Shown here one piece after another: positions 36,958 to 45,575 of a stretch of DNA of 51,710 bases. The DNA comes from Anaerolineae bacterium (GTDB lineage Bacteria; Chloroflexota; Anaerolineae; Epilineales; JAANWY01): assembly GCA_046756905.1 (NCBI GenBank), contig JBHHXF010000001.1:1-51710 (forward strand). Direction: 5' to 3'. Numbering within the stretch: position 1 is the stretch's first letter; each line of letters begins with the position of its first letter. Made by a program: the position numbers and the translations under genes. Under the pieces are notes generated by a model, which was given only the letters and a program-made list of their open reading frames with translations, was not told where the DNA came from and made no database searches.

Positions 36958-38454
36958 ATGATCAATCCAACGTTTGAAGAATTCGAACAATTGTCGCACC
37001 AGGGCAACCTGATCCCTGTTTTCCAGGAACTGCCGGCTGACCTGGAAACGCCGGTGTCGGTCTATCTGAAGCTGCGCGGCCGCGGCCCCGCCTTCTTGCT
37101 GGAGAGCGTCGAGCGGGGTGAACAGGTCGGTCGATACTCGTTCCTGGCGGCCGACCCACAGCTCCGACTCGCCGGCTACGAGGATCACGTCGTCATCCAA
37201 AGCAACGGAGATGTGGATAGGCAGCCCCTGGAACGCGGCCAGGACCCGCTGAGTCCCATCGAAGAGATCTTGAATCAGTATCAGCTTGTAAAGATGCCGG
37301 GGCTACCCCGCTTCGTGGGTGGGGCCGTCGGATACATGAGCTACGACCTGGTCCGCTTCTTCGAGCGACTGCCGGCCACAGCCGACGGCGACCCGCAACT
37401 GCCCCTATGCCAGTTCCTGTTCACCGACACGCTGGTCATTTTCGACCATGTCAAACACAAGCTGCTGATTCTGGCCCTGGCTCACATTAACGGCAGCCCA
37501 AAAGCCGCCTACGACGACGCCGTTAACCGAATCGACAACATCATCACGCACCTGCAACAACCGCTGACGCATCCCGAATCCCGCATCCCGCACCCCGCAC
37601 CCCGCACCCAACACCCCACATCCCGCATCACGTCAAACATGACCCAGCGCCAGTTCGAGCAAATAGTCTGCCAGGCCAAGGAACACATCGCCGCCGGCGA
37701 CATCTTCCAGGTGGTCCTGTCGCAACGCTTCGCGCGCCAAACCGACGTCGGCTCCTTTGCCATCTACCGGGCGCTGCGGATGCTGAACCCGTCGCCGTAC
37801 ATGGTTTTCATGCAGCTCGGTGACCTGGACATCATCTCATCGTCGCCGGAGATGTTGGTCCGACTCGATCATGGAATCGCCGAATTGCGGCCCATCGCCG
37901 GCACCCGTCCACGCGGCGCAAGTCTGGAAGAGGACGCGGCTCTGGCCGAAGAACTCCTGGCAGACCCCAAGGAACGAGCCGAGCACGTCATGCTGGTCGA
38001 TCTGGGACGCAACGATTTGGGTCGGGTGTGTGCTTACGGAAGTGTAGAAGTGCCGGAACTGATGACTATTGAGCGCTATTCCCACGTCATGCACATTGTA
38101 TCCAGCGTGCGAGGCCGGCTGAACGGCGCCCGTAACGCCTTTGACCTGCTGCGCGCTACATTCCCCGCCGGCACGGTATCGGGTGCGCCGAAAGTGCGCG
38201 CCATGGAGATCATTGAGGAATTGGAAGGACTGCGTCGTGGCCCGTACGCCGGCGCCATCGGCTACTTCAGCTACGGTGGCAGCATGGACACCTGCATCAC
38301 GATCCGCACGATTCTGAAGCAGGGCGACATCGCGTACATCCAGGCCGGCGCCGGCATCGTAGCCGACAGCGACCCGGCCCGCGAGCATGAGGAGTGTGTC
38401 AACAAGGCAGCGGCGCTCGCAGAAGCGATTACGACCGCTGAACAAGGTTTGTAG
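36958..38454 (+). CDS. trpE: anthranilate synthase component I
   Basis: Motifs LLESVE, GDIFQVVLSQRF, GTRPRG, RGPYAGAIGYF and AGAGIVADSDP. GAGGAG lies 8 nt before ATG 36958. Confidence 0.92.
   Translation: MINPTFEEFEQLSHQGNLIPVFQELPADLETPVSVYLKLRGRGPAFLLESVERGEQVGRYSFLAADPQLRLAGYEDHVVIQSNGDVDRQPLERGQDPLSPIEEILNQYQLVKMPGLPRFVGGAVGYMSYDLVRFFERLPATADGDPQLPLCQFLFTDTLVIFDHVKHKLLILALAHINGSPKAAYDDAVNRIDNIITHLQQPLTHPESRIPHPAPRTQHPTSRITSNMTQRQFEQIVCQAKEHIAAGDIFQVVLSQRFARQTDVGSFAIYRALRMLNPSPYMVFMQLGDLDIISSSPEMLVRLDHGIAELRPIAGTRPRGASLEEDAALAEELLADPKERAEHVMLVDLGRNDLGRVCAYGSVEVPELMTIERYSHVMHIVSSVRGRLNGARNAFDLLRATFPAGTVSGAPKVRAMEIIEELEGLRRGPYAGAIGYFSYGGSMDTCITIRTILKQGDIAYIQAGAGIVADSDPAREHEECVNKAAALAEAITTAEQGL
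37573..37628. repeat. eight tandem heptamers (CCCGAAT CCCGCAT CCCGCAC x3 CCAACAC CCCACAT CCCGCAT) in frame inside trpE
   Basis: Read directly. Translated as ..HPESRIPHPAPRTQHPTSRI.. in a linker of TrpE. No inverted partner seen nearby. Confidence 0.85.
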
Positions 38455-38478
38455 TAAGCCACGTTTGTAGTAAGCCAC
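38447..38478. repeat. perfect tandem duplication of the 16-mer GTTTGTAGTAAGCCAC, whose first copy contains the trpE stop codon
   Basis: Copies at 38447-38462 and 38463-38478. An imperfect inverted partner (GACTACGAACAG) lies at about 38527-38541. Confidence 0.85.
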
Positions 38479-38557
38479 GCAGCGCAGCGGAGTGGCGTCC
38501 GACGGCACTCCACTTCGTTCCGTGCCTGACTACGAACAGATTTCGAGGAGGTGTACT

Positions 38558-39562
38558 ATGAGGAAAAGGAAAATCGTGTTTTCCGGCATTCAACCTTCAG
38601 GCGGTCTGCATCTGGGAAACTATCTGGGGGCAATCAAGCGCTGGGCCGCCGGCCAGGACCAGTACGACAGCATTTTCTGCGTGGTGGACCTACACGCCAT
38701 CACCATCCCGCAGGACCCGGGCTCACTGCGTGCCAACATTCGTGAGCTCACGGGTTTGTTGGTGGCGAGCGGCATCGACCCGGAGCGGAGCGTGCTGTTT
38801 GTCCAGTCCCACGTCACAGCACACGCTGAACTGGCCTGGATCTTGAACTGCGTGACACCCGTCGGCTGGCTGGAACGCATGACTCAATACAAAGAGAAAG
38901 CTGCCAAACAGGAGAGTATCGGCACCGGTCTGCTGGACTACCCGGTGTTGCAGGCGGCCGACATCTTGCTGTACCAGGCCCATCTGGTCCCGGTCGGGGA
39001 GGACCAACGCCAGCACGTCGAGCTGACGCGAGACGTAGCCGGCCGCTTCAACCACCTGTACGGCGATACCTTTGTCTTGCCGGAGGCGCTCATCGCCAAG
39101 GCCGGCGCCCGGATCATGGGCCTGGATGACCCGACATCGAAGATGAGCAAGAGCACCGAGAAGCGGTACCACGCCATCGGCATCCTGGACGACCCGGATG
39201 AGATTCGGGCCACCGTTCGCCGCGCCGTCACCGACTCGGGTCGCGAGATCATATTCAGCGACGATCCAGAAAAGGCCGGCGTCAACAACCTGCTGAGTAT
39301 CTACCAGTTGCTGTCGGAGCAGAGCGAGCAGGAGATCGAAGACCACTTCGCCGGTAAGGGATACGGCGAGCTGAAGCGCGAGGTGGCCGAGATCGTCGTC
39401 GAAACTCTGCGCCCGATCCAGCGCCGCTACCAGGAATTGGTCGAAGATCCAGCCACCATCGACGACATCCTGAAGGCCGGCGCGCAGGAGGCGAGGCGAC
39501 GCTCAACACCCACATTGCAACTGGTGAAAGAGCGGGTGGGCTTTCTGCTGCCAGACGCCTAA
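38558..39562 (+). CDS. trpS: tryptophanyl-tRNA synthetase
   Basis: Class I motifs: GGLHLGNYLG in the HIGH position, and KMSKS. GGAGG lies 6 nt before ATG 38558. Confidence 0.92.
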   Translation: MRKRKIVFSGIQPSGGLHLGNYLGAIKRWAAGQDQYDSIFCVVDLHAITIPQDPGSLRANIRELTGLLVASGIDPERSVLFVQSHVTAHAELAWILNCVTPVGWLERMTQYKEKAAKQESIGTGLLDYPVLQAADILLYQAHLVPVGEDQRQHVELTRDVAGRFNHLYGDTFVLPEALIAKAGARIMGLDDPTSKMSKSTEKRYHAIGILDDPDEIRATVRRAVTDSGREIIFSDDPEKAGVNNLLSIYQLLSEQSEQEIEDHFAGKGYGELKREVAEIVVETLRPIQRRYQELVEDPATIDDILKAGAQEARRRSTPTLQLVKERVGFLLPDA

Positions 39563-39577
39563 CCAAAGGAGCGCAAC

Positions 39578-44642: not shown

Positions 44643-44654
44643 TCAGGGAATAGC

Positions 44655-44749
44655 GTAGGGGCGAGGCAGGTCGGAGAGCATGTTCTTTTGCTAGTGAACC
44701 CTCATTCCGACCTGCCTCGCCCCTACTTTCCGACCTGCCTCGCCCCTAC
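44655..44749. repeat. 21-mer GTAGGGGCGAGGCAGGTCGGA plus two tandem exact complements (44706-44726, 44729-44749) in the trpB-trpA spacer
   Basis: Reverse complement verified by hand. Confidence 0.9.
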
Positions 44750-44780
44750 ACCGCACCGACATAACGAAGGGACACATCCC

Positions 44781-45575
44781 ATGAGCCGAATTACACCTAC
44801 TTTCGAGAAACTGCGTCAGGCCGGCCGGCCGGCCCTCATGCCCTACCTCACCGTTGGCCATCCGCGACCGGACTTGACGGTAGACCTGGTATCGGCGGCC
44901 ATCGAGGCCGGCGCGGACCTGATCGAGCTCGGTATCCCCTTCTCTGACCCGCTGGCGGATGGAGCTACTATCCAGCAGGCGACACACCAGGCCCTGGAGC
45001 ATGGCACAACGGTCGAAACGTGTCTTCAAACCGTGGCTGAACTGCGAAGGCGCGGCCTCGAGACCCCGCTGATCCTCATGGGCTACTTCAACCCAATCTT
45101 CCAACGCGGCATCACCCGGTTCTGTGCGAATGCAGCCACGGCCGGCGCCGATGGCCTGATCGTCCCTGACCTGCCGCCCGAGGAAGCCGACGAGCTTCGG
45201 CAGGCGTGCCGCGCTCACGACATTGATCTGATCTTCCTCCTGGCGCCCACCAGCGACGATGCGCGCATCCGCCGCGTTGTGGAGCTGTCAACGGGTTTCA
45301 TCTATCTGGTTTCGCTCATCGGTGTGACTGGGGCTCGGGACCACCTGCCGGCGGACCTGGAAGCTTTCGTGCAACGTGTACGCGAGCAGACCCATTTGCC
45401 GCTGGCCGTCGGATTCGGCATCGGCAGTCCTGAGGAGGCACGCCGCGTCGCTCGCGTGGCCGACGGGGTCATCGTCGGCAGCGCTATCGTCCGGCGGGCC
45501 GGCGAGAGCGCGGAACCGGTGAAAACCGTTCGCGATTTCGTCCAATCTCTCCACCAGGGACTGAATATCCGATAA
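44781..45575 (+). CDS. trpA: tryptophan synthase alpha chain
   Basis: [25 protein letters not shown] and VGFGI. ATG 44781 after GAAGGGA. The ORF-track start 44688 lies inside the repeat. Confidence 0.92.

Follow-up and report, generated by a model that had tools for sequence, protein, structure and literature searches.

Heptamer arrays in the trp operon of an Anaerolineae contig

We analyzed a contig of 51,710 nt (G+C ~0.6), hereafter the window, which belongs to a metagenome-assembled genome (MAG) of an Anaerolineae bacterium (Chloroflexota). Its tryptophan operon, a 2706-residue open reading frame (ORF), and several intergenic regions carry short tandem arrays, mostly of 7-nt words, which are often paired with inverted copies of the same words to form hairpins (foldbacks). 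Pfam matches place the genes of the operon in the order trpE, trpS, trpG, trpD, trpC, an ORF for a CopG antitoxin, trpF, trpB, and trpA, with a T-box leader upstream. The trpS gene (38492-39562) is embedded between trpE and trpG, an arrangement also observed in the related loci L002, L004, L087, and L088. The most likely start of trpA is the ATG at 44782, since in the longer ORF the Pfam match starts only at residue 39.

Arrays were detected with Tandem Repeats Finder (TRF), the pairing of inverted arms was scored separately, and RNA folding was evaluated by energy and z-score. The comparison loci, numbered with the prefix L, were gathered by a genome scan with TrpD and by look-ups of close TrpF homologs. 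They comprise about a dozen contigs of the same clade with the same operon, obtained in different studies (TrpD identity 73-92%, TrpF 74-86%; 110 kb), and ~75 trp loci from other phyla (1.07 Mb). The loci nearest to the window are those of Anaerolineae or Anaerolineales MAGs.

An earlier reading of this DNA from its letters alone (the original prediction) had listed six repeat sites in the operon, and TRF and the scoring of inverted arms recover all six where it had placed them. It held that most junctions carry a foldback of 7-nt words. Four of the eight junctions carry a repeat element, namely trpE-trpS, trpG-trpD, trpF-trpB, and trpB-trpA, and no repeat element is found at trpS-trpG, trpD-trpC, trpC-copG, and copG-trpF of the window. 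The 7-nt unit holds for trpG-trpD and trpF-trpB, the trpE-trpS element being built on a 16-mer and the trpB-trpA element on a 21-23-mer. The tracts inside trpE and trpF, which had been grouped with the foldbacks, proved to be single arms that show no folding of their own. The coordinates and composition of all elements are given in Table 1.

Table 1 Repeat elements of the window and features of the trp leader. Energies and z-scores are those of the RNA fold.
Feature	Positions	Strand	Composition	Energy (kcal/mol)	z
trpE array	37568-37629	+	TRF period 7, 8.9 copies; CCGCATC/CCGCACC; in frame, single arm		-0.3
trpE-trpS element	38447-38537	+	16-mer GTTTGTAGTAAGCCAC twice, inner hairpin, one diverged inverted copy (GTGCCTGACTACGAAC)	-44.1	-4.5
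trpG-trpD composite	40145-40338	+	5' arm (CAGTGAT/CAGTCAA)x5; 113-nt nested insert; 3' arm (ATCACTG-type)x6	-100.9	-10.3
trpF array	42823-42864 (TRF 42826-42863, 5.4 copies)	+	period 7; in frame, single arm		-0.5
trpF-trpB hairpin	43352-43411	+	(ATTACGT ACTGCGT ATTCCG), loop, (ACGCAGT ACGCAAT)x2	-22.2	-2.6
trpB-trpA element	44655-44749	+	21-mer GTAGGGGCGAGGCAGGTCGGA, 30-nt spacer, two inverted copies	-55.4	-7.8
In-frame foldback, 2706-aa ORF	9182-9287	+	(TCACCCC)2 (CTCTCCC)2, loop, (GGGAGAG)2...(GGGGTGA)2	-99.5	-10.2
In-frame foldback, 2706-aa ORF	9592-9711	+	(GGCTGGAT)n, loop, (ATCCAGCC)n; residues 172-211	-53	-6.7
In-frame foldback, 2706-aa ORF	10230-10380	+	(GACAAGGA)3 (GGAAAAGT)2...(CTTTTTCC)n...CCTTGTC		
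In-frame octamer array, 2706-aa ORF	10850-10912	+	ATCCAGCC units, interrupted by 21-nt element GTCCTGAGCCTGTCGAAGGG (10867-10886)		
In-frame foldback, 2706-aa ORF	13785-13895	+	(GAGACAAG)5.6, loop, (CTTGTCTC-type)	-53.2	-5.3
Perfect heptamer hairpin	4617-4679	+	GGAGATT GGAGACT GGAGACC, loop, GGTCTCC AGTCTCC AATCTCC	-48	-7.9
Intergenic cluster	22372-22747	.	two GGAGATT-family foldbacks (22372-22446, 22640-22747), ATCCAGCC array (22539-22573), duplicated 13-mer		
Foldback	51588-51686	+	(GGGTATT)n, loop, (AATACCC)n	-49.2	-7.1
T-box leader	36547-36904	+	Rfam RF00230, 106.9 bits; operon context, no repeat element		
T-box leader terminator	36888-36918	+	terminator-like stem, then T run		
Promoter-like site of trp operon	36499-36527				

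Excess of period 7, hairpin layout, and word families

The window contains fourteen period-7 arrays of at least three copies, whereas 50 dinucleotide-preserving shuffles gave 0.12 on average and never more than 1; the concern that such tracts might be no more frequent than in composition-matched sequence is thereby removed for the window. In the same shuffles, period-8 arrays are also in excess (4 against 0.02 expected) and periods 5, 6, and 9-11 are at background. Period-7 density is 32.8 arrays per 100 kb in the clade versus 3.6 in the trp loci of other phyla. The clade densities of periods 5, 6, and 8 are 2.7-3.6 per 100 kb, and for periods 5 and 6 the clade and the other phyla have the same densities. 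Misassembly is a common hazard of repeats and hairpins, and the window is a MAG contig, but it is hardly credible that the tracts stem from faulty assembly or are low-complexity sequence produced by chance: their excess over shuffles is 100-fold and specific to a single period, about a dozen independently assembled contigs have arrays at the same orthologous sites, and every in-gene copy keeps the reading frame.

An inverted partner lies within 250 nt of 28 of the 40 clade arrays (70%), compared with 4 of 40 after the arrays had been moved to random positions. The control rate for the other phyla, 21 of 45, is too high in AT-rich loci, and individual examples only are given for them. The foldbacks of the window have energies from -22 to -101 kcal/mol (z -2.2 to -10.3); z is -4.5 or lower for ten of the twelve hairpins, the weak ones being trpF-trpB (-2.6) and the one designated bigORF-3 (-2.2). 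The 18 strict arrays of the window are divided equally between coding (9) and non-coding DNA (9), the non-coding share of the window being at least 7%, a minimum since the stop-to-stop frames that cover 93% overestimate coding, and by our guess ~12-15%. Intergenic DNA is enriched in arrays with hairpin potential, also where it separates co-transcribed genes; the hairpins are located at trpE-trpS, trpG-trpD, trpF-trpB, trpB-trpA, and at the junction of a solute-binding-protein gene with a permease gene.

The arrays are written in many words, with ~32 canonical word classes in the 110 kb of clade loci, and many of these recur at non-orthologous sites. AAACGTG is found at no fewer than four sites (at least 4) in L002, AATACCC at trpF and at the 51.6-kb site of the window, GGAGATT at four sites of the window as well as in L002, and ATCCCGC in trpE of the window and trpF of L003. 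Two junctions of L005 carry an identical two-word composite of AAATCCC with AATGACC. For 32 random word classes, ~0.4 coincidences between unrelated sites would be expected by chance. The recurrence of words asserted in the original prediction does lie far above chance, with corrections of detail: some of its coordinates are a few nucleotides off or refer to the complementary strand, trpF holds AATACCC and not GGGTATT, and the word at position 9616 is GGCTGGAT.

Heptamer foldbacks were also found near trp genes in unrelated MAGs, as (GCTGAAG)5...(CTTCAGC)4 in L056 (Nitrospirae) and (GTGCTGA)3...(TCAGCAC)4 in L057 (Blastocatellia), with further examples in L023 and L013 (Anaerolineales) and in L040 (Actinomycetota). 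The layout (word)n-loop-(complement)n is confined neither to this clade nor to cyanobacteria.

Turnover of the junction elements

The trpE-trpS 16-mer (TRF 38447-38479) is present in 2.1 copies that are 100% identical, the first of which holds the trpE stop codon. The corresponding junction of L002 and L087 has a one-directional (GAGATTx)n array in place of the ~90-nt element of the window. An array-encoded LEIGD is the C terminus of both TrpE in L002 and the window gene at 22728. At trpB-trpA, TRF reports two copies of a 23-mer (44705-44749), and the arm 44655-44675 is complementary to 44706-44726 at 100% and to 44726-44749 at 96%; the 21-mer word is also found downstream of trpB in L003.

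The trpG-trpD composite gives two period-7 calls (TRF 40146-40182 and 40296-40341). Its 33-nt arms, 40145-40177 and 40299-40331, are 88% complementary, and the nested insert has a palindromic core (40209-40287). The element is present at the predicted place, but its 5' arm is not intercistronic, as it lies within the trpG reading frame and forms a C-terminal extension of TrpG. The trpG stop codon falls within the first arm words in L001, L002, L004, and L005; in the window, a TAA to TCA substitution extends TrpG by 27 residues and carries the frame into the nested insert. The two arms have 12+13 copies in L001, 4+6 in L002, and 5+6 in the window. An orthologous hairpin is present in L091, that of L004 is interrupted by a 370-nt insert, and those of L005 and L089 are made of quite different words (CAATGAC/CAAATCC in L005 versus CAGTGAT in the window). 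The hairpin is absent from L087, where the junction measures 5 nt, and decayed in L088.

The trpF-trpB hairpin (TRF 43382-43411, period 7) has arms 43352-43371 and 43390-43409 that are 90% complementary. Orthologous hairpins are found in L002, L003, L004, L086, L087, L088, and L090, the last with other words, and none is found in L091. A hairpin of the form (CGTGAAA)n/(TTTCACG)n occupies the trpS-trpG junction in L002, L004, and L087, a site that is empty in the window. Related genomes of the clade are polymorphic at their trp loci for both presence and copy number of the elements, as had been proposed for examination.

The junction hairpins might be selected as cis-acting RNA elements that protect against 3' exonucleases, provide RNase III sites, or couple translation, the words being an easy way of building stems. 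They would be read through, lying between a stop codon and a ribosome-binding site with no T run: none of the four junction foldbacks is followed by a T run or called terminator-like. The one terminator-like call inside trpG-trpD (40261-40278, 5-pair stem) represents a small stem within the nested insert, and the convincing terminators of the region belong to the T-box leader. The energies of the folds are very strong, and the trpG-trpD and trpF-trpB hairpins are present in most clade genomes despite wholly changed words. For the STRR hairpins of hupS-hupL, stabilization of transcripts or translational coupling has been proposed (PMC2670836). Against such a role, G-U pairs show no bias to the mRNA strand (36 sense versus 52 antisense), and sense folds are often less stable than antisense ones, as at trpG-trpD of L001 (-86.5 versus -120.8 kcal/mol antisense). 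Moreover, each of the trpG-trpD, trpF-trpB, and trpS-trpG hairpins is missing or decayed in some members of the clade, identical structures occur in coding regions, where a stem of -99 kcal/mol is unlikely to be helpful, and the single arms of trpE and trpF cannot form hairpins. The missing bias in G-U pairing and energy, taken with hairpin loss in close relatives, speaks against a necessary RNA function of any single junction. We therefore regard selection for RNA elements as an unlikely explanation, which leaves room for a mild, generic RNA function of the junction hairpins. The effect on mRNA processing that had been suggested is not indicated as a needed role, the RNA-level test being negative and single hairpins being lost in close relatives.

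Selfish genes have repeatedly settled at the trpC-trpF junction. In the 116-aa ORF found there in the window (42294-42644), a deletion of ~165 nt has joined the N-terminal ~27 residues of a BrnT toxin to the CopG/BrnA antitoxin; L001 (3006-3552) has an intact BrnT (PF04365) together with the antitoxin. An HNH endonuclease gene lies at the same junction in L004 (11843-13320), L085, and L089. In L087 and L090 the junction is empty, and trpC and trpF overlap.

Single-arm arrays inside trpE and trpF

The trpE array encodes THPESRIPHPAPRTQHPTSRI in the linker ahead of the chorismate-binding domain. This linker is 117 nt long in the window, 105 nt in L004, where it holds (ACGCAxC)x6, and 141 nt in L002, where TTCCACGTTTCACG stands on both sides of the 21-nt element described below; in L007 and L010 it is 96 nt long and non-repetitive.

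The trpF array consists of six copies (42 nt, 14 codons) of words such as ACGCAGT, ACCCAGT, and ACCCAAT. It is located in the α1-β2 loop, as an insertion relative to the PRAI of T. maritima (1dl3/1lbm). The words of this loop are (ACGCAAG)x4 in L001, (ACGCAAC)x4 in L002, (CGCATCC)x4-5 in L003, (ACTACCC)x4 in L085, and (ACGCGAT)x3 in L090. L086 and L087 use ACGCAAT/ACGCAGT words, and L004, L089, and L091 have ACGCAAT-type (ACGCAxx) words interrupted by the 21-nt element. Six different words are thus used among the loci read as DNA, with net length differences that keep the frame; the window loop is exactly 21 nt longer than that of L002. In relatives whose identity does not exceed 66%, the loop is free of repeats and 13-14 residues long. 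At the same place, a relative with 48% identity has an independent in-frame heptamer foldback, (GTTAGGR)x15...(CAAAATC/TTAAATC)x7, of ~50 residues. The trpE and trpF tracts are thus lineage-specific in these alignments. The claim that the trpE and trpF tracts are repeat-encoded insertions or expansions, in frame, relative to more distant orthologs is upheld by these comparisons, and the ortholog DNA of the two genes does not reveal the same peptide segments as ancestral and encoded by non-repetitive sequence in relatives.

The trpF array shares its ACGCAAT-like word family and its orientation with the 3' arm of the hairpin at trpF-trpB, ~500 nt downstream, and is therefore complementary to the 5' arm of that hairpin. 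The same likeness is seen in L002, L004, L086, and L087, and it could reflect a common origin or long-range pairing. Co-variation of the trpF-loop word with the trpF-trpB word looked promising in the window and L002 and failed with L088, L090, L085, and L003; what remains is that the ACGCAAT family is used at both sites in most genomes.

Complete foldbacks within a 2706-residue protein and elements elsewhere in the window

The 2706-aa ORF (9081-17201) is a real multi-domain secreted carbohydrate-active protein, composed of PcRGLX-like (lyase), GH127-like, two fibronectin type III, DUF6259, and dockerin domains. Five elements lie in frame within it, four of which are complete foldbacks (Table 1). 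Its homologs, at 29-36% identity only and from a single metagenome scan, are sufficient to delimit one insertion: tblastn aligns the distant homologs L081 and L082 on either flank of 9592-9711, with a clean gap of 40 aa that coincides with this element. The element at 10230-10380 falls between two segments aligned with L082 that are separated by 118 aa here versus 32 aa there. All seven fully internal elements are free of stops in the gene frame, among them 13785-13895 and 9182-9287, the latter with one stop in each of the other frames, and stops are present in 8 of the 10 alternative frames of the elements in this ORF. On these grounds, open gene frames, stops in the other frames, and the gap in homologs, the sequences indicate that in-gene elements are translated and not removed.

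Outside the operon and this ORF, the hairpin at 4617-4679 lies between the solute-binding-protein and permease genes of an ABC transporter (Pfam). Just upstream of it is a perfect palindrome, GGCCTGGATTGCCAAATCCAGGCC (4553-4576); similar palindromes, GGATTGCCAAATCC, flank a 250-nt insert at the trpF-trpB junction of L004. A minus-strand gene (22728-23648) takes its C-terminal LEIGD and its stop codon from the last arm of the intergenic cluster at 22372-22747. The foldback at 51588-51686 directly follows the stop codon of an FMN-dependent dehydrogenase gene and uses the same word as the trpF array. A LysM-domain protein (45750-46259) has a glycine/tyrosine/histidine-rich tail (GYGYYPYHGYYPYYGY...), which derives in part from an 18-nt tandem repeat (46159-46203); unlike the heptamers, this is an ordinary coding repeat with a unit divisible by three.

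Small elements nested in the arrays

A 21-nt element, GTCCTGAGCYTGTCGAAGGG, or GTCCTGAGC[CT]TGTCGAAGGG, is present in 11 near-identical copies (up to 4 mismatches, most with 0-1) in the window, at 10867-10886 (+) and 15635-15654 (-), in L002 at 7283, and in L004 at 8 sites. It is nested in arrays of ATCCAGCC, TTCCACG, and ACGCAAT units and once in the loop of a hairpin, and no copy was found in the 75 loci of other phyla (1.07 Mb). Translation of the element gives VLSLSKG in one direction and PFDKLRT/LRQAQD in the opposite one, and it is read in frame in TrpE (L002), in TrpF (L004, L089, L091), and in the 2706-aa protein. A second element, of ~90 nt, is a hairpin with the ends GTTYGTAGT...ACTACGAAC and an inner GGAGTGGC...GCACTCC stem. 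It occupies trpE-trpS in the window (38447-38537) and in L088, and is nested in the trpG-trpD hairpin of L004 (9616-9729); its occurrence at different sites in different genomes suggests mobility. The two are probably mobile, forming separate small dispersed elements that would use arrays and hairpin loops as landing sites.

The same could be asked of the foldbacks themselves, each of which might be a non-autonomous mobile element of the miniature inverted-repeat transposable element (MITE), REPIN, or foldback type, moved by a transposase encoded elsewhere with the heptamers as binding sites. The composite order (A A B | B' A') shared by two L005 junctions, the GGAGATT-family foldbacks at four sites of the window, the nesting of elements in one another, and the dispersal of the 21-nt and ~90-nt companions as units all fit such an origin. 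However, neither conserved termini nor target-site duplications are seen when filled and empty trpS-trpG and trpG-trpD sites are compared, and the more than 30 word classes in 110 kb would need many specificities. Orthologous sites vary by 7-nt copy number and not by insertion or excision of a whole unit, and single-arm arrays exist. The annotated genes of the window, in an incomplete annotation of one 51.7-kb contig, include no transposase (or RAYT). A transposon-like origin is disfavoured for the foldbacks, for which we judge it quite improbable, and plausible for the two nested elements.

Relation to known repeat families

STRR heptanucleotides of filamentous or heterocystous cyanobacteria were reportedly described by Mazel and co-workers (Mazel et al., in 1990). 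Against the reported STRR words, TGACCAA of L005 equals STRR2 (TTGGTCA), CAGTCAA of the window is a rotation of STRR3 (CAACAGT), and the TrpF words ACCCAGT/ACCCAAT lie within 1-2 substitutions of STRR1 (CCCCAGT); all three serve as leads only. Word matching gave one exact match, one rotation, and several matches within one mismatch, with ~3-4 near matches expected by chance. The arrays described here resemble STRR in their 7-nt unit, in having several word families, in being dispersed and mostly intergenic, and in forming hairpins between co-transcribed genes. Hairpins of 7-bp STRR between co-transcribed genes (hupS-hupL) have been called usual in filamentous cyanobacteria (PMC2670836). The arrays differ from STRR in that their host is a member of the Anaerolineae (Chloroflexota, ~60% G+C) and not a cyanobacterium, in that half of the window arrays are coding, including whole in-frame hairpins and the TrpE and TrpF arrays, and in that octamers and 16-23-nt words accompany the heptamers in the window. 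Every sequence-level feature of STRR and heptamer repeats that was tested is present, and the host alone sets these arrays apart.

Heptameric repeats are over-represented in many bacteria according to Mrazek et al. 2007, as that work is cited in PMC4692102. The GGGAATC repeats of Xanthomonas and the GGGGA(T/C)T repeats of Nostoc occupy fixed intergenic positions with variation in length and sequence, and some are inverted (PMC4692102). They share with the arrays studied here a heptamer-specific excess, inverted sets, and same-gene positions with variation, and GGAGATT, GGGTATT, and GGGATTT resemble their G-rich words; one G-rich word with G-quadruplex potential is involved there, whereas many words, hairpins, and translated copies are found here. 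TAACTGA repeats are known from Beggiatoaceae, Cyanobacteria, and Bacteroidetes, where some sets overlap or lie inside ORFs (PMC4679880). They are likewise mostly intergenic heptamers just upstream of start codons, with a patchy phylogenetic spread, and the trpG-trpD arm words ACTGATC and ACTGATT are one substitution away from ACTGATA of the Beggiatoaceae TAACTGA repeat. The Beggiatoaceae repeats differ in having a single dominant word and 1 of 170 sets inverted, versus many words and ~70% inverted pairs here.

The 21-nt element recalls the SDRs of Nostoc punctiforme, which Elhai et al. in 2008 are said to have found to be 21-27 nt long and often embedded in tandem heptamers. The likeness is one of size, near-identity, and nesting in arrays; the sequence is unrelated and the phylum a different one. 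Rickettsia palindromic elements are, reportedly from work of Ogata et al. in 2000, in-frame palindromic insertions, also in housekeeping genes, that give extra surface segments. They resemble the in-gene foldbacks as palindromic DNA in frame inside protein-coding genes and differ in forming conserved families of ~100-150 nt, whereas the in-frame elements here share short words only. REP, BIME, and REPIN sequences are intergenic hairpin doublets, often between co-transcribed genes, with a conserved 20-35-nt sequence and a RAYT gene (PMC3116915). Hairpin doublets and their nesting or clustering are common to both, but the arms in the window vary in word and length between sites. MITEs and foldback transposons differ again, as no defined ends or duplication could be recognized at filled versus empty trpS-trpG and trpG-trpD junctions. 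The tandem repeats of Borgs reportedly evolve rapidly, arise independently, and create disordered protein regions (PMC9879509). Their in-gene units are divisible by 3 and direct only, whereas here the units are of 7 nt, only net changes by multiples of three survive, and inverted pairs dominate.

The combination had been put forward as not well described, which is unsupported or overstated, as STRR hairpins, heptamer excess, and heptamers inside ORFs are already published (PMC2670836, PMC4692102, PMC4679880). A literature search found no publication on heptamer repeats in Anaerolineae or Chloroflexota. New are the occurrence in this phylum, the density of arrays, the translation of whole hairpins, and the clean series of comparisons; a new class of elements is not involved.

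Origin of the arrays

The period excess, the hairpin layout, the turnover at fixed sites, the sharing of words, and the translation filter lead us to read the tracts as STRR-like arrays of 7-nt, sometimes 8-nt, words, which probably grew by slippage and were filtered by selection, and which would be a genome-wide property of the lineage and not specific to trp. Polymerase slippage has been proposed as the cause of heptamer repeats, 7 nt matching the footprint of the polymerase (PMC4692102). Such arrays would start at or beside small palindromes and lengthen or shorten as replication slips by 7 nt at a time, a step that bacterial replication in general may favour. Words would be homogenised within each array and occasionally copied or overwritten between sites through template switching or gene conversion. 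Selection would act only as a filter: intercistronic hairpins without a T run would be tolerated, and within genes only stop-free versions with net changes by multiples of three, in permissive loops, would survive. The in-gene copies are indeed always open in the gene frame and located in loops, linkers, or termini. Any effects that the arrays have on mRNA or protein would be by-products and would not account for their existence.

Several points weigh against this reading. Slippage alone explains neither the inverted pairs nor the same words at unrelated sites. The 4-copy trpF array of L001 and L002 adds only ~1 aa relative to repeat-free relatives, which looks like overwriting more than expansion and is not explained by slippage. 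The trpG-trpD or trpF-trpB hairpins persist in most of ~10 genomes, with TrpD identity down to 73%, and this could reflect selection for a hairpin. The data consist of one 51.7-kb contig and short relative loci, as opposed to a whole genome. Finally, mirror-templated arms were sought by permutation of word order (1000 times, 13 foldbacks) and all p-values exceeded 0.15, in a test of low power with 3-6 similar words per arm; we accordingly make no claim that one arm was copied from the other. Of the two origins initially offered, slippage plus foldback formation is still the most economical, and self-templating found no backing in this test of the arms.

A word-independent dedicated process could instead write the heptamer arrays with their inverted copies and move words between sites. 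We give this a small probability. Its agent may be a self-templating micro-element, or else a repair or primase-polymerase activity whose footprint measures 7 nt. If it exists, it would be common to Anaerolineae, filamentous cyanobacteria, Beggiatoaceae, and others, and the words shared across phyla (TGACCAA, CAACAGT, ACTGATx, GGGRATT) would reflect the specificity of its machinery or horizontal spread. It would then be a general generator of protein loops, termini, and intercistronic RNA structure, even in core enzymes.

Significance for genome evolution and annotation

Whether written by slippage with selective filtering, the reading that we prefer, or otherwise, the tracts have practical consequences. 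They shift gene ends, as with the 27 residues gained by TrpG from a single substitution, and give spurious low-complexity peptides in annotation. They are frameshift-prone sites within essential genes and likely break points in MAG assembly. Heptamer hairpins, usually taken as a cyanobacterial curiosity, are dense in Chloroflexota, and examples occur in the MAGs of Nitrospirota, Acidobacteriota, and Actinomycetota fetched for trpD. The trp operon of this clade offers a natural experiment in which word change, growth and shrinkage of arms, nesting, stop-codon shift, and loop lengthening can be followed at identical sites.

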